Shown here: in pieces, positions 6,153 to 48,663 of the stretch
Numbering within the stretch: the first letter of the stretch is position 1
Layout: each line of letters opens with the position of its first letter
Assembly (NCBI GenBank): GCA_041937175.2
Contig: CP166615.1
Coordinates: 3,584,001 to 3,648,000, forward strand
From: Limnothrix sp. BL-A-16
GTDB lineage: Bacteria > Cyanobacteriota > Cyanobacteriia > CACIAM-69d
Length of the DNA stretch: 64,000 bases
Direction: 5' to 3'
Notes under the pieces: model-generated
Database searches by the model: none
What the model was told of the DNA's origin: nothing
The model's input: only the letters and a program-made list of their open reading frames with translations
Program-made: the position numbers and the translations under genes

Positions 6153-7685
6153 ATGAATCCGATGATGGATCAGGCGGCGGCCACCCACTCGCAGCCCGAT
6201 CGCGCCATTGTCCTCGGCGGAAGTTTGGCGGGTCTGTTGGCCGCCCGAGTTTTGGCCGACCGCTTCCAAACCGTCTTGGTTTTAGAACGAGATCCCCTGC
6301 CCACCCCCTGGGAACGACCAGAAACCCCGGACGAAACCTGGTGCAATCGTCGCCCTGGCACGCCCCAGGCTGATCACGTACATGTGCTGTTGGCTCGGGG
6401 ACAGCAGATTTTGGAATCGCTCTTTCCTGGATTCGCCAATGATTTGGCCACATCCGGAGCCGTGGAGGTTAACTGGACAGCAGACTGCGCCATGATGGGC
6501 CTCGGCAGTTGGAATCCAAGGGTTTCATCGGATTTGGTGACCCGCACCAGCAGCCGATCGCTCCTGGAAAGCCTGGTGCGGCGACGGTTACAGGCAATTC
6601 CCAACGTGATCTTTATGTCGGGGGTCGCGGTTCAAGGGTTAGTGGTGGCGGGCGATCGGGTCACGGGAGTGCGCCTAGAAGGGAACTCTGCCCAAAACCT
6701 GGTGAGCACCTTGGCCACGGAAACCCTCTTGGGGGCCCAATTGGTGGTGGATGCCATGGGGCGCAATTCCCAAATGCCCCGCTGGCTGCAACAGTTGGGC
6801 TATGGCTCCGTTCCGGAAGTGACGATCGATGCCAAGTTGGGTTACGCCAGCCGTTGGTATCAAATGCCCGCCGACTATTTGGCCCAGGTGGCTCAGGATC
6901 CGGAAAACACCTGGAAATCGATTTTGCTGTGGGCCAAGCCGCCCCACCAGCCCCGCGCCGGGGTGCTCTATCCGGTGGAGGGTAACCGCTGGGTGGTGAC
7001 GGTTTCGGGAACCAATGGCGACTATCCGCCGGCCGATGAGGAAGGGTTTTTGGCCTTTGTCCGCAGCTTGCGGGATCCGGCCATTGCGCGGGCGATCGCC
7101 TCGGCGCAGCCGATTTCAGACATCAAGCTCTATCGGGGCACGGCTAACCGCTGGCGACATTACGAACAGTTGGCCACGTTCCCGATCGGGCTGGCCCTGT
7201 TGGGGGATTCGGTTTGTACCTTCAACCCGCTCTATGGCCAGGGGATGACCGGAGCCGCGATCGGCGCGGTGACCTTGGGTGATTGTCTCGATCGGGCCCA
7301 ATCGGAACTGGGCCTAGATTGGGGACAATTTACCCACCTGTTCCGGCAAGAGTTGGCCCGTGTGATTCAGTTGCCTTGGTTGATGGCCACGGGGGAAGAT
7401 CTGCGTTGGCCCGCCACCGAAGGGCCGCGCCCCGATCGCCCCACACGCTGGATGCAAGCTTATCTGGAGCGAGTCTTGCATCTCACCGATGCCCACAAGG
7501 ACATCCATGAGATCGTCTGGAAAATCCAGCACATGATCCTCTCGCCCCAAGCCCTGTTTCATCCCTCGATCGTGATGCGGGTGGGGGGCGCTTGGATCTA
7601 TCAACGGCTGCTGGCCAATTGGTTTCCCACCTGGGGGCCCGAAAACCTGAACCTCACGCCCTCGTTCTTGGGGGCCCGGCGCTAG
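6153..7685 (+). CDS. FAD-dependent oxidoreductase/monooxygenase
   Basis: Rossmann motif VLGGSLAGL, VVDAMGR, GDSVCTFNPLYGQGMT; start moved to ATG 6153. Confidence 0.85.
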   Translation: MNPMMDQAAATHSQPDRAIVLGGSLAGLLAARVLADRFQTVLVLERDPLPTPWERPETPDETWCNRRPGTPQADHVHVLLARGQQILESLFPGFANDLATSGAVEVNWTADCAMMGLGSWNPRVSSDLVTRTSSRSLLESLVRRRLQAIPNVIFMSGVAVQGLVVAGDRVTGVRLEGNSAQNLVSTLATETLLGAQLVVDAMGRNSQMPRWLQQLGYGSVPEVTIDAKLGYASRWYQMPADYLAQVAQDPENTWKSILLWAKPPHQPRAGVLYPVEGNRWVVTVSGTNGDYPPADEEGFLAFVRSLRDPAIARAIASAQPISDIKLYRGTANRWRHYEQLATFPIGLALLGDSVCTFNPLYGQGMTGAAIGAVTLGDCLDRAQSELGLDWGQFTHLFRQELARVIQLPWLMATGEDLRWPATEGPRPDRPTRWMQAYLERVLHLTDAHKDIHEIVWKIQHMILSPQALFHPSIVMRVGGAWIYQRLLANWFPTWGPENLNLTPSFLGARR

Positions 7686-7697
7686 GGGCCGATTTCC

Positions 7698-8300
7698 CTA
7701 ATCGTTCGTTACATCCGGCACATCCGAGAGCACTCGGCCGGGAGTCGAAGCCGCTGGGGCTGTTTCTGCCTCGGCGGCTTCGTTGTTGGGGGCATCGTTG
7801 GGGGCATCTTCCGCCGGGGCGGCATCTTCCGCATTCGACGCGGCTTCGCTTTCCGGGGCATTCTCCGCAGGCGTTGCCCATTCCTCCCCGATCGCCAGGG
7901 TGACCCGATCGGGGCCGGCGGCCCGCAGCTCACTGACCAACTGCAACACCTTTTCGTAGGGCAAGTTGCGATCGGGCTGAATCAGCACCACGCCCTTGGG
8001 ATTCTTGAGGTAGTTCTGAATATCCGCCTTGAGTTGATCCTTGGGAATGGCGCGATCGAGCACCACCGTTTGCCCCTGGCGATCCAGCTTAATCAACAAA
8101 GGCGGTGGCGGCGGCCCCTGATCGGGTTCCGCAGGTGCATCCTCACCGCTGGCGGGCAGGTTCACCTCCAAGCTGTTTTGGCTGCCCAACACCATGGACA
8201 AAATGATGAAAAAGGTAAGCACCGTCATCAACACGTCCAGCATCGGCACAAGGTTGACTTCCGGGGGCTTGTGGTGAGTCTGTCGATTGCGCGATCGCAT
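7698..8300 (-). CDS. exbD: ExbD/TolR biopolymer transport protein with acidic C-terminal tail
   Basis: EVNLVPMLDVLMTVLTFF motif; in an operon with exbB. Confidence 0.88.
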   Translation of the reverse strand: MRSRNRQTHHKPPEVNLVPMLDVLMTVLTFFIILSMVLGSQNSLEVNLPASGEDAPAEPDQGPPPPPLLIKLDRQGQTVVLDRAIPKDQLKADIQNYLKNPKGVVLIQPDRNLPYEKVLQLVSELRAAGPDRVTLAIGEEWATPAENAPESEAASNAEDAAPAEDAPNDAPNNEAAEAETAPAASTPGRVLSDVPDVTND

Positions 8301-8394
8301 GGTTGGGGATCCACTCCGGTGAAGGGGGGCAAGAGTGCCGAGGACAAGGGTTAATCAACGGAAGCGACAGGCAGCGGCCGGCAAAACCAACCGG

Positions 8395-8805
8395 CTAACC
8401 CTGCTCGAAGGAGAGACCGACCCGATCGCCCCCCACGGCTTTCAGGAGCGTCAAGACTTCTTCAATCGATCGAAACGGCAAGGTGCGATCGGCCTTCAAC
8501 ACCACCATCCCATCCGGCTGTTTGGCAAAATAGTCCGCCACGGCTTGATCCAGTTCCGCCGGGGTCACCGGTTTGTCATTCAGCAAAATCTGTTTTTTTT
8601 GGTCTAGTCCCACCAGCAGCGGATCCTTGGGAACCGTCGCCGCCGCTGAGGTTTTGGCCTTGGGCAACTGCACGTTGGGCATCTGCGCCCCGGTCAGGGT
8701 CATCGACACCAAAATAAAGAACGTGAGCACCGTCATCAACACGTCCATCATCGGCACGAGGTTGACATCTGGGAGCTGATTGGCCGATCGGGTCTTGGGT
8801 CGCAT
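8395..8805 (-). CDS. exbD: ExbD/TolR biopolymer transport protein
   Basis: DVNLVPMMDVLMTVLTFF and LKADR motifs. Confidence 0.9.
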   Translation of the reverse strand: MRPKTRSANQLPDVNLVPMMDVLMTVLTFFILVSMTLTGAQMPNVQLPKAKTSAAATVPKDPLLVGLDQKKQILLNDKPVTPAELDQAVADYFAKQPDGMVVLKADRTLPFRSIEEVLTLLKAVGGDRVGLSFEQG

Positions 8806-8834
8806 GGGGCCTGGTTTCCTGTCCTAATCCACTC

Positions 8835-9581
8835 CTAATCCACCAACGACGGCGGGCGATCGGCATAGGGTAAGGGGTCGAACCCATGGGTTGGCCGTTC
8901 CCCACCGGGCGATCGACCGCCACCGCTAGGCAAGTCCGGCGTGGGGAACAGGGGTTCATACCAAACCTGGCGATAGATCAGCTCCAAGCGACTGCCCACC
9001 TCGGTGAAATAGTCGATTTGCTGAGATTGCAGCACCACCAACACCCGAAACACCACCAGGGCCATAATCGCCACAATCATGCCAAAGGCCGTGGTCAACA
9101 GGGCTTCACCGATCCCCGCTGCGGCGGCCGTGGCGGCCTTGGTGTCGCCGCCCCCACCAATATTCAAGTTATTGAAGGTGGCAATTAGCCCCGTCACCGT
9201 TCCCAGCAGTCCCAGCAGGGGGGCAACAGCCACGATCGTTTCCAGCAATTTATCGCCCCGTCGCATTTTCACGAACTCCCGTTCGGCGGCCGTTTCCAGC
9301 GCCAAATTAAACGTTTCCGGGGTGGCTTGTTTCAACATCAAGGGAGCCAACAAAAATCGCCCGATCGGGAGGGTTTGGGCCTCGCGAGCCGTGATCGCCG
9401 CATCCTCTAGGCTATACTTCGCCGCCGCCAATACGTCATGGACAATCCGATCCTCCTGGGCCATTAACCGCACCCAAAACACCGTCCGCTCCAGGGTCAC
9501 GGCCACCGTCGCGATCGACATTCCCAGCAGGGGCCACATGACCGGCCCCCCTTTCACCAGCAAATCAAAAACCTGAGACAT
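8835..9581 (-). CDS. exbB: MotA/TolQ/ExbB proton channel protein
   Basis: KGGPVMWPL, APLLGLLGTVTG, GIGEALLTTAFG; start set at MSQVF. Confidence 0.92.
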   Translation of the reverse strand: MSQVFDLLVKGGPVMWPLLGMSIATVAVTLERTVFWVRLMAQEDRIVHDVLAAAKYSLEDAAITAREAQTLPIGRFLLAPLMLKQATPETFNLALETAAEREFVKMRRGDKLLETIVAVAPLLGLLGTVTGLIATFNNLNIGGGGDTKAATAAAAGIGEALLTTAFGMIVAIMALVVFRVLVVLQSQQIDYFTEVGSRLELIYRQVWYEPLFPTPDLPSGGGRSPGGERPTHGFDPLPYADRPPSLVD

Positions 9582-10460
9582 GGCCGCCCTAAAACCCAAA
9601 AGCGTTGTGATACTTAGCGTTGCCGATTCCCATTGATCCCGCTCGATCGCCCCCACCAGCCCCAAGCATCCCATTGGTTAGTCGATTTGGTCAGTCGATC
9701 GATGTCCTAACCGATCCCTGGGTAGCTGCAAGGTTCGATCGCACCCTTAACTCAAGACCATCGCTTGATCAGTTCAGCACGATGGCAGAGTCCGTAATCA
9801 ATCACAAAATATCAGAAAACATCAATCCTTCATCAGTTCATTCATGTCGTTGATTCACAGATCAATCAATTCACTGATCAACTCATCAACCAATGCAAGG
9901 AAAATCAAGAAATGAATGCGAGAAAAATCAGAAAATAAAATAAAAAATAATTGAAATTGATCCGAATTTCACCAGTACTGTTAAATGGACTTCTTAAATA
10001 AATTGACTTCTTAAACTAGTTTGCAATTTCTTGGCAATTCTTAGAAGAGAAATTTTTGAAAAAATGCTCTCTAGAATACCTCTTAAAATATTTTCTGAAG
10101 CGCCTTCTAAGAATCGTATGAAAGCTTTAGAAGTGCTCTGGCTTGGAAAAGTCTTGGAAGAAGCTCTCGAATCTGCTTTGATAGTTGCCTGTGAAATGCT
10201 CTTAACTCAGGCGATCCTATTCTGTCTTGCAGATTTTTAACTTGAAATGTGAATGTTGAGAGCTAATTAAGCACTTTGATCAATTGATTTAGACGTTCAG
10301 AGCTATTTGTTTAGACGTTTAGAGCTATTTTTGATTGCTCCTGCCTAAAGTCAATCTTGTTTAAATTAAGAAAAGTTTAAATGCAATTAAATTTTTGAAT
10401 AAGACGCAAAATTGCGTAGCTTTAGTCATTTTGTTAGGGGTTCACAACGAATCAGAATGA

Positions 10461-10490
10461 TTTAAATTTTCTTTAACCCATTCTTAATTC
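10461..10490 (+). promoter_or_regulatory. Pho box (SphR/PhoB site) upstream of pstS
   Basis: TTTAAATT-ttc-TTTAACCC-att-CTTAATTC: three YTTAAYYW-like 8-mers at 11-bp period. Confidence 0.75.
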
Positions 10491-10874
10491 AATAGCAGAC
10501 TTCTAATAACCGATTTCCGAAATAATGAGGCTGCTAAGTTGGAATTTTTTAACAACTTCTTGAAGTTTGCTTGCCTCTGATCACCCGCTTCAGACAGACA
10601 AGTGTTGAGTCGGTGATCCAACTGCCAGCAAATTTTCAATGAATTGCAAGCCAATCCAAGGCAATGTCGATGCTCTGTTGGCATCACACAAAATACTGAA
10701 TCGATTCCGCACCAATTGAGTGCGGCCAAGATCTGGGCCAGCAGTTCCAATCGCCAATGGTTTTAAGGTTTCGCTATTGGGCCAGAGCTTGGACATTGAC
10801 TGACGGCTGCGGGCTGGGTCTTGGGATGGGTTGCTGGTGTTCGTCATCAATCTTTGTGCTGGAGTGAAGTGTTT

Positions 10875-40200: not shown

Positions 40201-40711
40201 CTTAGGCCATAGGGCGATCGACCGTCGCAGCCCATTGCTCGATCGGCTCGATCGTCCACAATTCCACTCCTGAGTCACGAGCAGCCAAACCGTCTCTCAG
40301 TCCCCAATCAGCAGAAAATCAAGTCATGCAGACTCGAACAGCATCAAGATCCTGACTTGAGTGCTGTTCTTTCGGCATGGGAGGCTGTAACAAAGTTGAC
40401 TCATCCCTCAACAGAAAATAATCCCGCCCTTGCGGTTTAATAGATCGTTGTAGTGGCTCAAGGGGTAGTAGTGATTTATACATTCGCCATGTCATCATTT
40501 GCCAAATTGTAGTAACAACAGAGGGTAATGAGCTGGATATGCCCCCTATCGCAGATTAGACAAAGCATTTATTATTTTTCGCTCATGAAACTTAACTTGA
40601 TCGTCAGTGTCGGTCAGGTAATAATTCCTGTTGAAAGATGACTGACATCGTAAAGCTTTCAGGGCACTCAAGCCAATCACATTGATCAGTCCCCTTGCGG
40701 AGGAAAGGCAC

Positions 40712-41878
40712 ATGCTCAAAACAATTCTTGGTCATAGCGATGATCCTGACTCCCAAGATGCTATTGAAGAAGTGCTAGAACAATGTACCCGTGAATTAGC
40801 GGGAATGCTGCCCAAGGCAGGACTATTATTTGCGGCTATTGATTTTGATCATGCCTTAATTTTACAAAAAATCAATCAGACTTTTCCGAATTTGCAACTC
40901 ATTGGTTGCACCACTGATGGAGAGATCTCTTCGATTTTAGGGTTTCAACAAGACTCGCTGACCCTAACGTTGTTTTGCTCAGACACCGTGGAAATTTATG
41001 CGGGTGTGGGTCGCCAAACCGAACAGGACGCGATCGCCGCTGCTCGCCAGGCCGTGCAGCAAGCCACCGAAAAAAGCCTAACCCCCGCAAAGCTCTGCAT
41101 CACAGTTCCAGCCAGTTATACGGCCGATGGTTCAACAACCAGCGGCGAGCAAATTCTGAAAGGATTGGAGCTGGCTTTAGGGAAAAATGTCCCCGTTGTG
41201 GGTGGCACCGCAGGCGATCAATTTCGATTCAAAAAAACCTATCAATTTTTTGGAACAGAAGTTTTCACCGATGCTCTGCCGGTTCTGATTTTTGCTGGAG
41301 ATTTGCGCTTTTCCCATGGCACGGGCTGCGGTTGGCAGCCCATTGGCTCCAAGAGCACAGTCACCAAATCTCACAACACAGTTTTGTATGAAATTGATGG
41401 TCAATCGGCACTGAAGTTTTATCAAAAATACTTGGGCGATCGCTCTCCTACCGCAGAGCATCCTCTCTATGTTTATGAAGGAGATAGCGATCGCTGCTAT
41501 CTACGAGTCCCCAACACCTGCGACCTAGAAACCGGCAGCATTAATTTTTTGGGAAATATTCCCCAAGGCGCAACTGTGCAACTGGCTGAAATTAGCCGAG
41601 ATCAAGTGATTGCTGCCTCTGAAACTTCTTTCAAAATGGCTCTAGACAATTATCCTGGAACAGAGCCAGAGGCAGTGTTGCTTTTCTCTTGTTGTTGTCG
41701 TCGTTGGTTGTTGGGAACCCGAGCCAAGGAAGAATATGATTTAGTCAAAAATGCGCTACCTAAAATTATGCCGATCGCGGGCTTTTATACCTATGGCGAA
41801 TTTGCACCGCTTCAACAACAGGGTTCTAATTACTATCACCAAGAAACTTTCATTACCTTGCTTTTAGGCACAGCATAA
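40712..41878 (+). CDS. FIST (NosP-like) signal transduction protein
   Basis: IGCTTDGEI, GGTAGD, GWQPIG, YEIDG, FSCCCR, GFYTYGE. Confidence 0.92.
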   Translation: MLKTILGHSDDPDSQDAIEEVLEQCTRELAGMLPKAGLLFAAIDFDHALILQKINQTFPNLQLIGCTTDGEISSILGFQQDSLTLTLFCSDTVEIYAGVGRQTEQDAIAAARQAVQQATEKSLTPAKLCITVPASYTADGSTTSGEQILKGLELALGKNVPVVGGTAGDQFRFKKTYQFFGTEVFTDALPVLIFAGDLRFSHGTGCGWQPIGSKSTVTKSHNTVLYEIDGQSALKFYQKYLGDRSPTAEHPLYVYEGDSDRCYLRVPNTCDLETGSINFLGNIPQGATVQLAEISRDQVIAASETSFKMALDNYPGTEPEAVLLFSCCCRRWLLGTRAKEEYDLVKNALPKIMPIAGFYTYGEFAPLQQQGSNYYHQETFITLLLGTA

Positions 41879-41885
41879 AAGTCCC

Positions 41886-42965
41886 ATGGAAGCCAATGCT
41901 GATCAGCAAAAGCTACGAGAGTTAGAGAAGCAGGTACGAGTTCTCACGAAAAAATTAGAGCGTTCAGAGGCCGATCGGCGACAACTGGAAGATACAAGCG
42001 AAGAAAGAGAACGTATCCTTAAAGGTGTTATTCGAGATTTTGAACTAGCCCAAGCCAATCTAGAGCATCGCACTCGCGAACTAGAGGTGGCGCTGAGGGA
42101 TCTCAAGCAGTTACAAGTCAAACTAATTGAGTCTGAGAAAATGTCAGCCTTGGGTGTGCTGGTGGCTGGTGTTGCCCATGAAATCAACAATCCCATTAAC
42201 TTCATCCATGGCAATTTAACCTATATCAAAACTTACACTCAGAACCTATTAAAGCTTGTTACTGCCTATCAAAAATATGTTTCTAGCCCTATTCAGGAAT
42301 TACAAGATTTGAGGGAAGACATTGATCTTGACTTCCTGCAAGATGACATGATTAACATTCTCAGATCAATGCAAACCGGGAGTGAGCGAATTCAAAAAAT
42401 TGTGCTCTCGTTACGTAACTTCTCACGGTTAGATGAATCCAAGTTCAAAGCAGTTGATATCCACGCAGGAATGGATAATACTCTGATGATTTTGCAGCAT
42501 CGGCTTCAGGCAACTGCAACTCGTCCGGCAATTCAAGTTAGAAAACAATATGGCAACTTACCCTTAGTGGAGTGCTATGCCGGATCGCTCAATCAAGTAT
42601 TTATGAATCTGCTGAATAATGCTATTGATGCGATTGAAGAATCCAATCAAGTCTGTACTGATCAAGAAATGCAGCATAGTTCTCATGCAATTTGGTTGCG
42701 CACGGAAGTTAATGATCAAGATCAAATTAAAATTACGATCGCTGATAATGGTCAAGGAATTCCTGAAGAGGTGCGATCGCGTATTTTTGACCCCTTCTTT
42801 ACAACGAAACCCGTCGGTAAGGGTACAGGTTTGGGACTTTCCATTAGCTATCAAATTATTACTGAAAAACATAAGGGTAAACTCTACTGTCATTCAACAA
42901 GAGGAGCAGGCACGGAGTTTATGATTGAAATTCCAGTGCGGCAACAGTCCCCAACCTCTCGATGA
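41886..42965 (+). CDS. Soluble histidine kinase
   Basis: AHEINNP H-box, NAIDA, DNGQGI, FFTTK, GTGLGL. Confidence 0.95.
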
Positions 42966-43010: not shown

Positions 43011-43349
43011 ATGACTACACGGCAACTCGACCCTAAACTGCAATCTCGATTAGGCATTACCCCAAAGCAGCTTGCTGACTTTTGCCAACGATGGAAAGTT
43101 GTTGAACTCGCGCTCTTTGGCTCGGTTCTCAGAGATGATTTTTCCGTGAATAGCGATGTGGATTTTTTGGTCAAATTTAGCCCTCATCATTCTTGGGGTT
43201 TAGAATTTATTCAAATGCGAGAAGAATTGGCAGTGCTCTTGCAACGCCCAGTGGATTTATTGACTCATCAAAGCGTTATGAATAGTCATAATACCCTCCG
43301 TCGTCAGGCTATTTTAGATTCGGCAGAGGTCATTTATGCAGCGAGATAA
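43011..43349 (+). CDS. MNT antitoxin (nucleotidyltransferase)
   Basis: LFGSVLRDDF...SDVDFLV. Confidence 0.92.
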   Translation: MTTRQLDPKLQSRLGITPKQLADFCQRWKVVELALFGSVLRDDFSVNSDVDFLVKFSPHHSWGLEFIQMREELAVLLQRPVDLLTHQSVMNSHNTLRRQAILDSAEVIYAAR

Positions 43350-43677
43350 GCAGACATTAATAGATATTTCTACAGCGATTCAGCAAGCATTGCTGTATTC
43401 TCAAGGGATTGATCAAGATAGTTTGAAGCAAGATGACGAGAAGCAAGCTGCTATTTTATATCGACTCATTATCATTGGAGAAGCGACTAAACGTCTATCT
43501 AATGAATTTCGTGATCAATATCCAATGATTCCTTGGCGGCAAATGGCTGGCTTGAGAGATGTTGTGATCCATGATTACGATGAATTAGACTTTGATATTC
43601 TCTGGAACGTAGTTCACCTCAACTTGCCTGATATGCTGCCCAAAATTCAAGCAATTCTAGAAAGTTATGACAGCTAG
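43336..43677 (+). CDS. HepT-like (DUF86) HEPN RNase toxin
   Basis: IIGEA, IPWRQMAGLRDVVIHDY (RxxxxH). Confidence 0.92.
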   Translation: MQRDKQTLIDISTAIQQALLYSQGIDQDSLKQDDEKQAAILYRLIIIGEATKRLSNEFRDQYPMIPWRQMAGLRDVVIHDYDELDFDILWNVVHLNLPDMLPKIQAILESYDS

Positions 43678-44011
43678 GGCGATCGCGCTACCTATCGAAC
43701 TACCCATGGAGAAGGTCACTGAGTTTTGTCACAAGTGGCAAGTAACAGAGTTTGCCCTTTTCGGCTCTGTCCTTCGCGACGATTTTCGCCCCGACAGCGA
43801 CATCGATATTATGGTGGAGTTTGATCCAGCGGCCTGCCCCACTTTCAGCACCTTAGACCGTATGGAAGCGGAGCTGAACATTATTTTTGGTCGCGATATT
43901 GATCTAATTACCCGCCAAGGGATTGCCAGCAGTCGAAACTATCTACGCCGCCACGAAATCCTGTCTTCTGCCCAGGTGATTTATGCCACGGGATCTTCAA
44001 TTCCTGCTTGA
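43667..44011 (+). CDS. MNT antitoxin (second copy)
   Basis: LFGSVLRDDFRPDSDIDIMV. Confidence 0.92.
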   Translation: MTARAIALPIELPMEKVTEFCHKWQVTEFALFGSVLRDDFRPDSDIDIMVEFDPAACPTFSTLDRMEAELNIIFGRDIDLITRQGIASSRNYLRRHEILSSAQVIYATGSSIPA

Positions 44012-44306
44012 CATGTTGCAATCCGCAGAGCTGATCTTGACCTACACTGCTCAATGCTCGAAGGATGAATTTATTGCAAATGTACAACTGCAAGATTCAG
44101 TGATTCGGCGGCTATTGGTGATTGCTGAGGCTGCAAGACGGATTTCCAAAAATACTTGGCAGTCGTTACCGAATATCTCTTGGCAAGAAATTCATGGAAT
44201 GCGAAATTGGTTAGTGCATGACAGCGATCAATCTGCATTATCTCCTGATCGTGACCTCGTCTTGCTCAAGATAGCAGCTAGTGATCGCAGTACAAAACCC
44301 TACTGA
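43983..44306 (+). CDS. HepT-like (DUF86) toxin with an atypical C-terminus, possibly disrupted
   Basis: IAEAA...WQEIHGMRNWLVHD, then loses the usual Y...W helix. Confidence 0.7.
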   Translation: MPRDLQFLLDMLQSAELILTYTAQCSKDEFIANVQLQDSVIRRLLVIAEAARRISKNTWQSLPNISWQEIHGMRNWLVHDSDQSALSPDRDLVLLKIAASDRSTKPY

Positions 44307-44415: not shown

Positions 44416-44970
44416 TCACCGTATTGATTTTTCCCACCAACCTAACAAAGGATGATTCCTGTGTGGTTTGTATCTTCCTTTAGCTCGTATAGACTTAAGC
44501 ACAGCACATAATTCATCCAGACTAAGATTGTCTTTGTCTGACCAAGCTTTAATTATTTCTAAAGTTGATAGAACTTGTAAATGATTCGCTTCCTTTTGAG
44601 AGAATGAAATTGCTTTTTTGTCATCAGTAGCAATTGCCCATCCTCGACTAATCGCAATGGCACAAGTTGCAGATTCTCCATCATCACCTAGCTCAAAAGT
44701 GTAGTTTACAAATGCCTCTTCCTCAGACTCCGACTCAAAATCTACTACTGAAAGAAGTCCCTGTGCGATAGCTGTTTCAAACTGAACTGCACCTTCATTA
44801 TTCTCATTTGTAAGGCGTTGAAGAGTTATAAGTTCCTTGTTTTTCACAACTTCAGTAACTACAACTTGAGCAGGTATAGATTTCAAAATTTCAATGAAAT
44901 ACTCCGAAGCGCAAAAGTTCAGGATGCAACAAGCGTCAAGAACTATATGGGAGTGTCTAATTTGCATCAT
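44416..44970 (-). CDS. PIN-like domain protein
   Basis: IVLDAC, KEL, LGDDGESATCAIA, ATDDKKA acidic PIN residues; AGGGAG RBS. Confidence 0.75.
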   Translation of the reverse strand: MMQIRHSHIVLDACCILNFCASEYFIEILKSIPAQVVVTEVVKNKELITLQRLTNENNEGAVQFETAIAQGLLSVVDFESESEEEAFVNYTFELGDDGESATCAIAISRGWAIATDDKKAISFSQKEANHLQVLSTLEIIKAWSDKDNLSLDELCAVLKSIRAKGRYKPHRNHPLLGWWEKSIR

Positions 44971-44986
44971 CAATCTCCCTACTTTT

Positions 44987-46180
44987 CTACGCTTGACACA
45001 AGTCCAAGTGAGCAGTCCCCTCCGTAATTTCACTTGAATGCTCACGCAGTTCCTCTGCAATACGTCGAGCATCCAAACGGTCAACATTTAGAAGGTCTGC
45101 AAATCGTCCTTCAGTTATAAGCCCCTGATCTAACGCATCAATAGCAAGATGTTGATAGTGAACAGGGACAGTGTCAGTGCGCTGTGGAATACTTTCTAGA
45201 CCTAGCTCTTGCTGTACTTCTCTCACTTTTAAACCTCGATTTTTTAATCGGTCTCCAGTTCCCGAGGGAATAAGTCTAATACTTTCTAGACGATTAATCA
45301 AAGCCTCAATAGAGACTCCATAATAGTGAGCCAGTGTAAATAAGTTGGTAGGAGTAAACTTGCCATGCGCCTGGTACATATCATTAAAGCGCTTTAACAA
45401 GCCACTAGTTGGCATTAGAAAATAGTTGGGAAAGGCATCTCCCAAGCGCTCACTCTCTGGCTTTCTTTGATATTTTTCCTGGTAGTCAATAACTGGTTTT
45501 CTTCGATGTGCAAGAAAATGCAAATATTCATGAGCTAAAGACCACCGTCGCCGCTCTTCTGGGTGGTTGGAGTTAATGGCTATACACCCACCTAGCTTCT
45601 CGTCATAACTATAAAATCCTGAGTATTTAGACGGCATCTTCAAATAGAAAATGCGGAGTCCTACACTTTGCTCTAAAATATCTCTAAGAAGTGGAACTGG
45701 GCCATCGCCCAATCCCATCCTTTGGCGTTCAGCGATTGCAATACTTTCTGCTGCAGCCTCTATGGGCATCCTGGTCACATCATACTCTTGAGGGTAGTTT
45801 CGAGGAAGCGGAGCATCCACAATCTTCTCAAGCTCTAGATAATTGCGACATAGCTCCTCCAAGCGCTGAATAATTGGGGCAATTTGTACCTCTTCTTGTT
45901 CACTACGTTGATAAGCAGCACGAAACTGAACACTGAGAGGCTCAATGACAGGGCTAGGGCGAACAAAATCACTAATAGGTCGTCCGTAAGCACGAGCTAA
46001 TTTAATCAACTCATTTGGCTTTAGGCGACGTTCTCCTTTCTCAATTGCAACAATGGTAGTACGTGCAGCCTCAATAACCTTGGCCGCATCCGCCTGAGTC
46101 ATTCCACATTTCTTACGTGCTTGTTGCAGCAGCTCTCCTAGCTGACGCAAATCAATATTACCTAGAATATTAGTAGCCAT
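44987..46180 (-). CDS. XRE-family HTH fused to an ImmA/IrrE (DUF955) zinc metallopeptidase
   Basis: N-terminal Cro/C1 HTH; RRWSLAHEYLH (HExxH); E...FLMP; GGAGGAG RBS. Confidence 0.9.
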   Translation of the reverse strand: MATNILGNIDLRQLGELLQQARKKCGMTQADAAKVIEAARTTIVAIEKGERRLKPNELIKLARAYGRPISDFVRPSPVIEPLSVQFRAAYQRSEQEEVQIAPIIQRLEELCRNYLELEKIVDAPLPRNYPQEYDVTRMPIEAAAESIAIAERQRMGLGDGPVPLLRDILEQSVGLRIFYLKMPSKYSGFYSYDEKLGGCIAINSNHPEERRRWSLAHEYLHFLAHRRKPVIDYQEKYQRKPESERLGDAFPNYFLMPTSGLLKRFNDMYQAHGKFTPTNLFTLAHYYGVSIEALINRLESIRLIPSGTGDRLKNRGLKVREVQQELGLESIPQRTDTVPVHYQHLAIDALDQGLITEGRFADLLNVDRLDARRIAEELREHSSEITEGTAHLDLCQA

Positions 46181-46224
46181 AGCGTTTTCTCCTCCAGCCT
46201 TATTAAACAATGACCAGATGATTA

Positions 46225-47628
46225 TTAAAATGGCTGCTGATCATTTACTTCATTCAAGAGCAACGAGATACGGGATTCTACAACATTCCATTCGGTAACA
46301 TAAGATTGATAGAGACGAATCAAATTTTTCCGCATGTCGCTATGTAGTAGGACTTCTATCATAGCCATTCGATCCACAATGTCATCTAAATCTGGAAATC
46401 TTCGGGTTAAAGATTTCCATTGAAGATTAAAGTTATCTGAGACACTTAATAAATCTCTGAGAGTAGAAACTTGTGCCAGCATATGTTGAAAATATGAGCT
46501 AGTATCGCCTGCTGGCTTCTTGACATGGGGAACGATATATTGAGTTTTATCTTCTATTCGTGAGGCAGCAAGCGCCTGCCTTCTTAAGATACAAGAAGAA
46601 CAATACCCGCACTGGATGGGTTGCCGTCGATGTGGACTATCGCATGACATCGTTAGCTGCGGCAGGTCGTCCCTTTTATCTTCAGCCAAGGGTATGCACA
46701 TTTCAGCTTTAGTCTGGAAAAGGAAAGGGTTTTGTATTTTGAACTTCTCTCCTAAAAGCTCTGAAATAACGTCACTGACTCTTGACAAGGTTAATGGATG
46801 AACTGATCGAGAATGATCAAGTCCTATGGCAGACTTTCGGTATGGAAGATTGATTGCACCAACACCATTTTCATACAGGTAAAGAATTCGCTGCCCCATT
46901 AAGTATGCACAGGCTGCTCCTAGTAACATAAATACAATGCCTCGTGCGCGCGAAATTTTGCTCTTTCGATGCAAACTACTATCAGAGAAGCGAATTGGAA
47001 CCCGACATAAGTTCAAGCGGCTAGGGAAAGAGAATTGTAGTTCATGGAATACTTGTTTCTGACGAGCAAGGGTACTTTCATTACCACCTGTTCCAAACAG
47101 CATGAACGATGCTTCATTACTGGCTTTAAGTCGGCTGTAAAGACCAGCAAGCGCATCAAGTCCCCCACTCCATAGTGCTACCTCTTCTACATGAGAATTT
47201 GGTGATAATAGAAGGGGTTGACACTCAACAACGCGCCCTGAGTCAAGCCTCTTACAAAAATCGAATACCCATCGACTTCCAGTAGCCCATTCAAGTAGGC
47301 CAGAAAGTTTATCTTGAAAGGAGTTGGTATTCAATAATTCTGGGTGGCGTACTGGGAGACACACACAAATATAGGTCTGTTCTTGTCGGAGGTTTTGAAT
47401 AGTCAGACGATCAGTGGCATGAATAGCGACAGCAAGATCAATAATATCGGCAATGATTGATGGAAATCCTTGTTGTACCCGACACCTAAACTCTCTATCA
47501 TCTATAGTAATTCCTACGTTGCTTTCCTTCCCTTTGGAACGGTTAATGCAACGAACATTCCCATTACTATTCACGATGGGATCAAAAATCAAGGTATAAT
47601 TTTTGCTATACATATCATGCTCATCCAT
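46225..47628 (-). CDS. QueC-like (QatC-type) PP-loop ATPase
   Basis: WSGGLDA PP-loop, YENG...INLP, SRSVHP, NPF..TKAEM, SC-x10-CGYCSSC zinc site. Confidence 0.85.
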   Translation of the reverse strand: MDEHDMYSKNYTLIFDPIVNSNGNVRCINRSKGKESNVGITIDDREFRCRVQQGFPSIIADIIDLAVAIHATDRLTIQNLRQEQTYICVCLPVRHPELLNTNSFQDKLSGLLEWATGSRWVFDFCKRLDSGRVVECQPLLLSPNSHVEEVALWSGGLDALAGLYSRLKASNEASFMLFGTGGNESTLARQKQVFHELQFSFPSRLNLCRVPIRFSDSSLHRKSKISRARGIVFMLLGAACAYLMGQRILYLYENGVGAINLPYRKSAIGLDHSRSVHPLTLSRVSDVISELLGEKFKIQNPFLFQTKAEMCIPLAEDKRDDLPQLTMSCDSPHRRQPIQCGYCSSCILRRQALAASRIEDKTQYIVPHVKKPAGDTSSYFQHMLAQVSTLRDLLSVSDNFNLQWKSLTRRFPDLDDIVDRMAMIEVLLHSDMRKNLIRLYQSYVTEWNVVESRISLLLNEVNDQQPF

Positions 47629-47633
47629 AGCAT

Positions 47634-48266
47634 TTAACCTGCCAAGAGATTCTCGTCTAAATCTATCCTTTTATGTGAAAAACGCCTAGGTAGAGACAAG
47701 TTGGCTATACTTTGTTTGTTAATCGCATCTTTAGAAAATTTACTAATGCCATCCCTCAATTTTGGCTCTATTTCCTTAATACGCTCTGAAAGAGTTACTT
47801 GATCAATGCCCGCGTGGTGCTCGAAAGTAAGTGGAATGCACTCCTTAAATTCTGATTCATATACTTCATTTATATAGCGAAAAACTAGTGAAAATGAAAG
47901 GTTATCAATATCCATTTTTTGACCGTATCTCAGATCACAAATAACACTCTTGCCTGCACGAAGGGCAAGCTCCTTAAGATCCGGTCTTCCGTCAGATTGT
48001 TGCACCAACTTATCAAAATTCATACTCAAATCAGCATAGTCTCTTGACCCAAGTTCGTTGCTTGAAGTAAGAGCTTGATCAAGCATGTCTGCCATACTTT
48101 GACAAAGCCTGATAGGAAGATCACCTTTTTGAATTAAGTCTCTTTTAAGAGACTCCAGTAAAGCCCGAGAGCATTCATCGCTAGTTGCATTTCCCTCGCA
48201 AAGCCATTTGTATGGCCGCTGGTAAAGCGTTCTGAGCCGGTTATGAACAATATCTCCATCGGGCAT
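47634..48266 (-). CDS. Hypothetical protein, first gene of the QueC-like operon
   Basis: 210-aa ORF ending 5 nt before the QueC-like start; no recognised motif. Confidence 0.75.
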   Translation of the reverse strand: MPDGDIVHNRLRTLYQRPYKWLCEGNATSDECSRALLESLKRDLIQKGDLPIRLCQSMADMLDQALTSSNELGSRDYADLSMNFDKLVQQSDGRPDLKELALRAGKSVICDLRYGQKMDIDNLSFSLVFRYINEVYESEFKECIPLTFEHHAGIDQVTLSERIKEIEPKLRDGISKFSKDAINKQSIANLSLPRRFSHKRIDLDENLLAG

Positions 48267-48304
48267 AGCAGAACCTTTGTTGGTTAGAGTTTGTTTCCAA
48301 TATC

Positions 48305-48367
48305 AAGGTAGCTCGTGTTTCTGACATTGTCAATTGCTAGCATTGATTTTTAGAAAAAATGTCAGAA
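48305..48367 (-). promoter_or_regulatory. Sigma70-type promoter with overlapping palindromic operator candidates
   Basis: TTGACA-N17-TACCTT; TGACA-T-TGTCA palindrome over the -35; TTCTGACATT...AATGTCAGAA inverted repeat. Confidence 0.6.
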
Positions 48368-48634
48368 CTGGGGAGCGTGCAGGGGTCAAAATGGTTTTTG
48401 CGAGAAAAGCCAACTTTAAAATCACTTTTTGGGAAATTTTCATATTCTCACTTGAAGAACAATATGCATAACATATACACTTGGCTCCTGAAAGGCAGTT
48501 TGTTATACGATTGGGGCGGACTGCGGCAGGTGATAGACATTGCTAGATGGCAAAGCGTGGGCTACTGCCGTTAGAAGCTTTTGTCTCTTTTAGGAGACAG
48601 TCCTATCTAGACCCGTTGCTCAATTATTCGACAC

Positions 48635-48663
48635 AAAAGGGGCTGAGCAAATGCTCAGCCCCT
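48635..48663 (-). terminator. Rho-independent terminator of metH
   Basis: AGGGGCTGAGCA/TGCTCAGCCCCT stem with a T-run on the minus strand. Confidence 0.8.

Follow-up and report, generated by a model that had tools for sequence, protein, structure and literature searches.

A conserved four-gene cassette of Limnothrix sp. BL-A-16 sets a QatC-like enzyme beside an HTH-M78/PIN gene pair and is a candidate Qat-variant defence system

We analysed a stretch of 64,000 nucleotides of the genome of Limnothrix sp. BL-A-16 (contig CP166615.1, positions 3,584,001 to 3,648,000; hereafter the window) and focused on four genes found between its positions 44,416 and 48,266. In order of transcription, they encode a small helical protein (gene 1), a QueC-family enzyme resembling QatC (gene 2), a protein with an XRE-type helix-turn-helix (HTH) and an ImmA/IrrE-type M78 peptidase domain (gene 3), and a PIN-fold protein (gene 4). 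QatC is a component of QatABCD, reportedly described as an anti-phage system by Gao et al. in 2020. With a probability of about 60%, we propose that the four genes are a Qat-variant anti-phage defence system, in which a modification core similar to QatB and QatC (QatBC) is coupled to an HTH-M78/PIN toxin-antitoxin (TA) effector in a single operon autoregulated through the HTH. The novelty lies in a Qat-type core with a non-homologous partner and another N-terminal motif, wired to an HTH-M78/PIN pair that resembles Rosmer.

An earlier note, made from the sequence alone, had described four tightly packed and co-oriented genes at this place. These are real, although the starts of two of them had to be corrected. 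The open reading frame (ORF) list of the window gives four ORFs in the same direction, all on the minus strand (48266..47634, 47628..46225, 46210..44987 and 45087..44416). Gene 1 (47634..48266) encodes 210 amino acids (aa) and gene 2 (46225..47628) encodes 467 aa. The ORF of gene 3 (407 aa) is open back to a TTG at 46210; since the orthologues begin at about its residue 8-11, the start is likely the ATG at 46180, which leaves a protein of 397 aa (44987..46180). For gene 4, we rejected the 223-aa ORF, whose 40-residue extension overlaps gene 3, because the orthologues and an identical 183-aa database entry start at its M41; gene 4 is thus taken as 183 aa (44416..44967, start at 44967). In the orthologous loci, the stop of gene 1 mostly falls 5 nt before the start of gene 2 or overlaps it by 4 nt, and genes 3 and 4 are ~15-23 nt apart.

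The same four genes occur together across four phyla. Three of these come from two samples, which overlap since they draw on the same species genomes. The first comprised 401 genomes of the phylum (cyanobacteria, G000 included), searched with the QatC-like protein. Nineteen of them gave a gene-2 match, namely 14 full-length orthologues (G000 included; 54-63% identity), 2 remnants and 3 distant matches. When the flanks were compared with the four proteins by tblastn, each of the 13 orthologous loci had genes 1, 3 and 4 around gene 2 with the order unchanged; in one of them gene 1 is frameshifted (L025), and another is truncated by the start of its contig (L029). Compared with the window, the proteins of these 13 loci are 32-52% (gene 1), 54-62% (gene 2), 69-81% (gene 3) and 49-62% (gene 4) identical. 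In the second sample, one genome per species was scanned with a gene-1 alignment, and the 63 loci found were scored with profiles of the four proteins. All four genes stand intact and in order in 39 loci and are present with one of them split in 4; a further 15 carry internal deletions in genes 1-2 with genes 3-4 intact, and 5 are cut by contig ends or interrupted. Genes 1-2 were never found without genes 3-4 in the 58 loci that are neither cut nor interrupted. The set covers Cyanobacteriota, Chloroflexota and Rhodothermota. In the intact loci of Chloroflexota (L128, L130, L131, L135, L137 and L138), Rubrivirga (L125) and Microcystis (L127), gene 1 is 25-31% identical to that of the window, at 25-30% for Chloroflexota and Rubrivirga alone, and still starts with MPDGD. 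A scan of genome contigs with the single QatC-like protein confirmed no relative, whereas the alignment-based gene-1 scan did find loci; the same alignment found no relative in viral contigs. None of the 63 loci has the metH or MNT/HEPN flanks of the window, and the gene-3 tree mixes cyanobacterial families, suggesting that the cassette moves horizontally.

The fourth phylum is represented by plasmids. A tblastn search of plasmids with genes 2 and 3 led to six regions that were inspected, five of which have the same four-gene layout. These five, all alphaproteobacterial (L145-L149; Pannonibacter, Methylocystis, two Agrobacterium and Roseomonas), encode a hypothetical protein of 182-192 aa, a '7-cyano-7-deazaguanine synthase' of ~458 aa, an XRE/ImmA protein of ~390 aa and a hypothetical protein of ~190-210 aa, and here again genes 1-2 never stand without genes 3-4. 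The plasmid QatC-like protein is 23-24% identical to ours (H2, H6). Profiles of the window family match plasmid genes 2, 3 and 4 (1e-66 to 1e-77 for gene 3) and do not match plasmid gene 1, which nevertheless starts with MSDGP in four of the five and has a similar C-terminal tail, ending with INLDEDLTGVL in Roseomonas. The PP-loop of this clade reads S-[D/E/N]-G-x-D-S, versus SGGxDS, and HExxH is kept in all five versions of gene 3. The plasmid versions form a sister clade. The sixth region, on Salinibacter plasmid pSR56, contains the last two genes only. Taken together, a recurrence beyond chance indicates that the four genes form one cassette.

Gene 2 encodes a QatC-like enzyme with a PP-loop that forms a distinct subfamily, and the QatC-type motifs that had been read from its sequence are confirmed by database matches. 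It is matched by the PADLOC model of QatC (PDLC02214; E 2.8e-44, 149.7 bits, residues 57-378 only) and by the solved QatC chains 9zee_B (2e-23) and 9vlk_A (6e-22), and it is ~27% identical to a canonical cyanobacterial QatC. With the NCBIfam equivalog model NF041925 it reaches 161.6 bits, under the cut-off of 280, versus 399 bits for a canonical cyanobacterial QatC. Its N- and C-terminal extensions lie outside the coverage of the QatC model. The motif set of the QatC cluster (Cluster 2 of PF06508) is present, with the PP-loop SGGLDA, RARGxxF, ENG, SRSVHP, P(x)4TK and four Cys. Among 103 sequences, S154-G-G-L-D158 is conserved, and R227/R229/F233, E253-N-G255, H277-P278 and P301...T306-K307 are invariant or nearly so, as is the Cys4 zinc site C329/C340/C343/C346.

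The product of gene 1 is an all-helical protein of no described family, for which no match was found in Pfam, PADLOC, NCBIfam or PDB sequences. It has 164 close relatives, and 389 gene-1 clusters at E <= 0.001, nearly all of 200-220 aa, came out of a profile search over 1.84 billion representatives. The N-terminus in the window is MPDGD, as noted before, and this is a family feature: M1, D3, G4 and D5 are invariant in 108 sequences and residue 2 is P, A, T or S, i.e. M-[P/A/T/S]-D-G-D. Methionine aminopeptidase removes the initial Met when P, A, T or S stands at position 2. Some orthologues begin with GTG-GAT-GGG, read as M-D-G-D, so that the mature protein should begin with x-Asp-Gly-Asp for either form of the start. 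A second conserved block contains Y15, P18, Y19 and W21..C23-E-G. The AlphaFold2 (AF2) model (predicted local distance difference test, pLDDT, 87; predicted template modelling score, pTM, 0.83) shows seven helices, with residues 1-8 disordered. The last ~25 residues are also predicted to be disordered but carry a conserved acidic motif, IDLDE(N/D)LLAG (window 47634-47710), with P193, D202, L203, E205 and L207 among the conserved positions; this motif, which recurs in the plasmid version of Roseomonas, is likely a short docking motif for one of the partners. Structure searches with the model gave no convincing fold match, and the best score in the ESM Atlas search (0.82) is at noise level. Gene 1 is also the fastest-evolving of the four genes, at 32-52% identity compared with 69-81% for gene 3 in the 13 cyanobacterial loci, as expected for a component that meets phage proteins. 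From the position shared with QatB, the tight stop/start coupling to gene 2 and the invariant N-terminus, we infer that the gene-1 protein is the partner or substrate of the QueC-like enzyme.

The domain composition proposed earlier for genes 3 and 4 was also borne out. Gene 3 matches HTH_3 (4e-15) and Peptidase_M78 (1.7e-23) in Pfam and ends with a C-terminal domain. Its best PADLOC matches are RmrA models (1.8e-25 down to 4.7e-7, residues 24-322), followed by weaker ones to capP (1.4e-14), PDC-M69B (1.2e-10) and capH (3.8e-8), and the protein is presumed to be both repressor and antitoxin. It is the most conserved of the four. The zinc motif HEYLH (residues 227-231) is an intact HExxH in the window, and across 58 orthologues (loci L081-L143) H227 and E254 do not vary, with H231 retained in 56. 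The identity of gene 4 as a PIN protein comes from structure. Its AF2 model (pLDDT 93.4) has PIN/VapC proteins as top Foldseek matches (1y82, 5ecw and 3tnd; probability 1.00, E 3e-4), with a target template modelling (TM) score of 0.64-0.70 in the top six rows, and its acidic residues D11, E45, D95/D96 and D115/D116 are invariant in 75 sequences and make a complete acidic tetrad. The window's gene 4 has no Pfam match, PIN included, and no PADLOC match at E <= 0.1; PF11848 is present in some of its homologues. It is presumed to be a nuclease acting as toxin and effector.

A promoter upstream of gene 1 had been claimed as well. A sigma-70/terminator consensus scan found no site there (8 promoter-like sites overall versus 10.9 in shuffles), so the promoter call rests on comparative evidence, which does support it. 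Reading towards gene 1 on the minus strand, the order is CTGACATTT (from 48365), ~26 nt, TTGACAATGTCAG (48333-48321) and TACCTT. The distal operator-like box CTGACA(TTT) (48360..48365) lies ~99 nt upstream of the gene-1 start. The proximal box (48321..48333) is palindromic (5+1+5, TGACA-A-TGTCA) and overlaps the -35 hexamer TTGACA (48333-48328), and the -10-like hexamer TACCTT (48305..48310) follows the -35 after 17 nt. The arrangement TTGACA-17 nt-TAnnnT occurs in 30 of the 39 intact loci, and the palindrome TTGACA[A/T]TGTCA in 29 of them, Rubrivirga and Anaerolineae among them. A [C/T]TGACA box stands 31-34 nt upstream of the proximal TTGACA in 33/39 intact loci versus 40 of 7800 150-nt windows drawn at random from these loci, and the distal box is present in 13/13 sequences (the window plus 12 loci). 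These data support a conserved promoter upstream of gene 1. An operator lying over the -35, taken with the strong conservation of the HTH protein, suggests that the entire operon is autorepressed, the HTH domain of gene 3 presumably binding the proximal and distal boxes.

The earlier note had also stated that no QatA, TatD or CD-NTase partner is present. Indeed, none of the four proteins matches QatA, QatB or QatD among the PADLOC models at E <= 0.1, and in the whole genome, which is 100% complete, no QatA, no QatB and no match to the SMODS CD-NTase was found. Its sole TatD-like match is ~585 kb from the cassette and was obtained with a model that also matches in 13 of 14 control genomes. The cassette is independent of QatA, QatD and CD-NTase. 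A housekeeping QueC is encoded elsewhere in the genome (212.9 bits), which means that the pathway for 7-carboxy-7-deazaguanine (CDG) is available in the host.

Like QatABCD, the cassette contains a QueC-family enzyme of ~460 aa that has QatC-type motifs. The gene before it encodes a small all-helical protein whose N-terminus is flexible and conserved, with a small residue after Met; the coupling of the two genes is tight, and the operon also has a nuclease gene. Unlike QatABCD, the operon lacks the KAP NTPase QatA and the TatD protein QatD, and its accessory genes encode an HTH-M78 antitoxin-like protein and a PIN nuclease. QatB has ~260-296 aa with a tail of 30-90 residues and an N-terminus of G-T-S, whereas gene 1 has 210 aa, a tail of ~12 residues and x-D-G-D; QatC has SGGxDS and T-R-T, whereas gene 2 has the PP-loop SGGLDA and the substrate motif S-R-S. 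As in the type IV cyclic-oligonucleotide-based anti-phage signalling system (CBASS), a QueC-family enzyme is encoded beside a putative partner protein; unlike in type IV CBASS, no CD-NTase was found in the genome (Cap10 and a cyclic-nucleotide effector were not searched for), and the QatC-like enzyme of 467 aa differs from Cap9, which is minimal (~185 aa) with canonical QueC substrate residues.

Genes 3-4 resemble Rosmer and the ImmA-antitoxin node D25 of NetFlax in that an HTH plus ImmA/M78 antitoxin-like protein is followed by a toxin gene, and gene 3 shows the RmrA feature, HTH plus M78. Unlike in Rosmer, the pair here makes up the distal half of an operon of four genes with its promoter upstream of the QatC-like module, the PIN protein has no PADLOC match to RmrT, and the catalytic Glu of the peptidase is often Gly. 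Both the HTH and M78 domains and a presumed operator overlapping the promoter are shared with CapH/CapP and the PADLOC candidate PDC-M69A/B, HTH repressor and M78 protease regulators of defence operons; unlike in CapH/CapP, both domains are fused in gene 3, which is encoded inside the operon rather than divergently and is followed by the PIN toxin. The PIN fold with four acidic residues, the antitoxin-first order and the presumed autoregulation by the antitoxin recall VapBC, but the antitoxin would be a 397-aa HTH-M78 protein instead of a small VapB, and gene 4 (183 aa, with an extra C-terminal helical region and no match to Pfam PIN) differs from VapC (~130-140 aa). [quoted passage not shown] It matches only the QatC and RmrA components among the PADLOC defence models and no full system, and no published description of the combination was found in the full-text literature searched, including papers on QatB and QatC since 2025, in agreement with the novelty suspected earlier.

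[quoted passage not shown] The tail of QatB is essential, with its MGTS motif, P16 and W18, and so are the PP-loop and two invariant Thr of QatC (PMC13279940). QatB's N-terminal loop lies in the active site of QatC, with Met1 removed (PMC13376578). An NDG-modified GTSKAY peptide was detected at low abundance, and the QatB N-terminus also binds the nuclease QatD (PMC13639016). Attempts to reconstitute the QatBC reaction in vitro failed (PMC13279940, PMC13639016), and all three 2026 QatBC structure papers (PMC13279940, PMC13376578, PMC13639016) leave open how QatC acts and how modified QatB stops phage. In Cap9-CdnD, a QueC-family ligase acts on the N-terminal amine of a partner encoded next to it (10.1101/2025.04.06.647259; PMC13279940, PMC13329287); this is the only case with established chemistry, NDG on Gly2 (PMC13279940, PMC13329287). 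ImmA-type antitoxins were confirmed in Rosmer, and the NetFlax network associates them with PIN toxins (PMC10440598).

On these parallels we propose a Qat-variant defence system made of two modules. QatC-type motifs and a disordered, invariant gene-1 N-terminus, which parallels the essential MGTS tail of QatB, argue for a Qat-like core. In this module (genes 1-2), the enzyme would hold its helical partner with the free x-Asp-Gly-Asp tail in the active site, as in QatB-QatC, and would modify this tail in an ATP-dependent, adenylate-mediated reaction that conjugates an activated carboxylate to the N-terminus. The likely acyl donor would be 7-carboxy-7-deazaguanine of the host, as in Cap9 and QatC. 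The second module (genes 3-4) would be a Rosmer-like TA pair, in which gene 3 would repress the operon through its HTH at both CTGACA boxes and neutralise the PIN nuclease with its remaining part. A phage cue may alter the state of gene 1, the likely sensor, which could be modified, unmodified or phage-bound. The M78/C-terminal part of gene 3 would read this state, so that the PIN nuclease is freed and the operon derepressed, and the freed nuclease may cleave RNA and cause growth arrest or abortive infection. A more specific and rather doubtful version is that the ligase writes a mark on the x-Asp-Gly-Asp sensor, which is read by the M78 domain (HGxxH) as a receptor that releases PIN, with N-terminal conjugation of a (deaza)nucleobase serving as a TA switch. 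In this version the mark could be a nucleobase or another adenylate-derived group, and the invariant Asp-Gly-Asp leaves room for chemistry other than Gly2 deazaguanylation, e.g. activation of an Asp carboxylate by the PP-loop enzyme. The role given to the four proteins by the earlier note, with gene 1 as modified partner or sensor and the peptidase/PIN pair as regulator and effector, is supported as far as sequence analysis goes.

Several observations weigh against this proposal. Some concern the chemistry of the core. Gene 1 has no detectable relation to QatB in sequence or fold (hhalign probability of 0.6% for the gene-1 profile against one canonical QatB sequence rather than a QatB profile), so that it is a QatB analogue by position and presumably by function, with homology not demonstrable. 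The N-terminal residue of gene 1 is other than Gly, gene 2 has Ala159 in place of the last Ser of the PP-loop (SGGxDS), and the invariant Thr pair of QatC (T278/T280 in P. aeruginosa) aligns to S273-R-S275, of which S275 is kept in at least 90% of the 103 sequences and S273 is less conserved. The chemistry may thus differ from deazaguanylation. Others concern gene 3, in which position 228 (window 45524-45526 region) is G in 37, E in 19 and D in 2 of the 58 orthologues, and E in 15, G in 22 and D in 2 of the 39 intact cassettes. With the catalytic Glu replaced by Gly in most orthologues, proteolysis may not be the general regulatory step, and in most members the M78 domain may serve for binding and not as a protease. 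Such repeated switching between E and G inside an otherwise conserved M78 zinc site is unusual in itself. The remaining points concern the link between the two modules. The 15 deletions among the 63 loci have differing breakpoints (L109, L112, L113, L118, L122, L124, L126, L129, L132, L133, L136, L139 and L141-L143) and spare the promoter along with genes 3 and 4. Placing 13 deletion rows on the gene-3 tree takes 12 changes, of which well-supported branches force at least 5. The PIN protein was matched in 27 of the 401 genomes, with ten loci that have genes 3-4 without genes 1-2, and seven of these ten (L068-L071, L073, L074 and L076) keep the gene-1 promoter boxes or gene-1 fragments. Such repeated loss with genes 3-4 kept implies that genes 1-2 are dispensable for restraint of the toxin; genes 3-4 are thus an autonomous module that persists as an addictive module would, and genes 1-2 could be a separate system. 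Finally, all loci descend from one ancestral cassette, so the conserved order shows long co-inheritance and not many independent assemblies.

A rival reading, and a real if minority possibility, is that two independent systems travel together, namely a minimal QatBC-like defence pair and a Rosmer-like HTH-M78/PIN TA pair that share a promoter but do not signal to each other at the protein level, the TA pair merely stabilising or transcriptionally controlling its neighbours. Protection by QatBC alone against some phages (PMC13279940; PMC13434339), the intact genes 3-4 left by many independent deletions of genes 1-2, the stand-alone pair on pSR56 and three two-gene loci without any remnant of genes 1-2 (L067, L072 and L075) all fit this reading. 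It accounts poorly, however, for the finding that genes 1-2 were never seen without genes 3-4 in the 58 loci neither cut nor interrupted and the five plasmid regions, or for an order, spacing and promoter kept down to 23-30% identity in four phyla; moreover, QatBC too travels with a nuclease, QatD, which binds the QatB N-terminus (PMC13639016), so a nuclease partner fits the logic of the Qat family. An unlikely alternative in our view is a stress-response or addiction module with no anti-phage role, in which genes 1-2 tune the TA core by a metabolic cue (deazaguanine or the nucleotide pool): XRE-M78 pairs such as IrrE/DdrO and ImmA/ImmR do control non-phage responses (PMC10440598), and no relative was found in the viral contigs scanned, but the QatC family and the RmrA-type antitoxins both occur in validated defence systems, the plasmid copies have defence genes as neighbours (Eco57I-type restriction-modification (RM), AbiE/AbiJ and Shedu genes, besides DUF3800 genes), and a patchy distribution suggestive of horizontal transfer with frequent decay is typical of defence genes. 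It is very improbable that gene 2 is a metabolic QueC paralogue for deazaguanine modification of tRNA or DNA with unrelated neighbours. The name '7-cyano-7-deazaguanine synthase' given to gene-2 relatives in public annotation, next to 'hypothetical protein', and the weak Pfam QueC match (5.5e-7, C-terminal zinc region only) would speak for it; yet the TIGR00364 score is 12.6 bits (cut-off 150), QatC proteins are the best matches, the true QueC is elsewhere in the genome, QatC of E. coli fails to complement a queC deletion (PMC13329287), and the ORF list and Pfam matches show no QueD, QueE or transglycosylase gene in the cassette. Those public names mislabel the cassette genes.

We also considered whether genes 3-4 alone are the ancestral state and rejected this, because seven of the ten two-gene loci, with their gene-1 boxes or fragments, are deletion derivatives. 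Some deletions have joined the gene-1 N-terminus in frame to gene 3 (L073/L142, L076) or, in L133, to the C-terminal part of gene 2. In two of the loci without remnant, where the gene 3-4 pairs are more distant (62-64% identity), a large gene lies directly upstream of gene 3: one encodes a 519-aa protein with a weak NsnA/PD-T4-2 match (L075, 7792-9351, minus strand), the other a 415-aa protein without match (L072, 3439-4686, plus strand). These may be alternative partners. In an Anaerolineae locus (L134), an insertion of ~3.2 kb (~7440-10696), which may be a mobile element, interrupts the QatC-like gene between profile positions 252 and 252. Another cyanobacterium carries a canonical QatABC cluster (L034, G264:C1:154235-165233) with QatD on the opposite strand directly after QatC (PADLOC: QatA 4.5e-140, QatB 9e-42, QatC 4.9e-120, QatD 4.4e-102); its QatB, the sequence compared with gene 1 by hhalign, begins with (M)GTSKSY, and a PDC-S02 / PD-(D/E)xK-like gene follows QatD.

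In the window, the cassette sits between the metH terminator and two MntA/HepT pairs. A terminator-like hairpin 3' of metH (48638..48663, minus strand; 11 pairs, 8 of them G-C, then a T run; a consensus match only) parts the four-gene cluster from metH and marks the upstream operon boundary. Directly downstream, and converging on the cassette, are two tandem MntA/HepT-type TA pairs (43011-44306, plus strand), with NTP_transf_2 domains at 43011-43349 and 43667-44011 and HepT-like ones at 43336-43677 and 43983-44306; this region is a small TA/defence islet. The G+C content of the operon stretch is 0.39-0.44 versus 0.52-0.62 in the flanks. This low G+C, the MntA/HepT neighbours, the unshared flanks and the RM, Abi and Shedu neighbours of the plasmid copies point to a defence and mobile context. 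A FIST-domain protein followed by a HisKA/HATPase_c histidine kinase (40682-42965, plus strand) is encoded in this low-G+C stretch as well (0.41-0.48). A wastewater metatranscriptome run that shared 11% of sampled words yielded three short contigs that differ from the window at 0-2 positions (47168-47352, 47990-48276 and 48480-48640), and they partly cover gene 2, gene 1 and the region that lies upstream of the promoter. We rejected them as evidence of expression or of an operon, since an RNA library may hold DNA and the contigs give neither strand nor start; being near-identical even in a non-coding stretch, they indicate that a near-identical organism was present in the wastewater sample.

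If the proposed coupling holds, the cassette would be a second and simplified natural wiring of a Qat-type core, without the enigmatic QatA and QatD. Its effector would follow a well-understood logic, that of an antitoxin-repressor and a PIN protein, and would offer simple read-outs of the preceding modification step, such as toxicity and operator derepression, and the x-DGD N-terminus, compared with GTS or GGS, would test how general N-terminal conjugation by QueC-family enzymes is. In the accessible part of PMC13329287, QatA/QatD neighbours are given for only ~34% of the genes of the QatC cluster, and no other Pfam neighbour is given for it in Supplementary Table 2, where the lowest values are ~20%; the cassette explains at least some of the remaining ~two thirds. 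It is a widespread and unannotated defence candidate of cyanobacteria, Chloroflexota and rhizobial plasmids.

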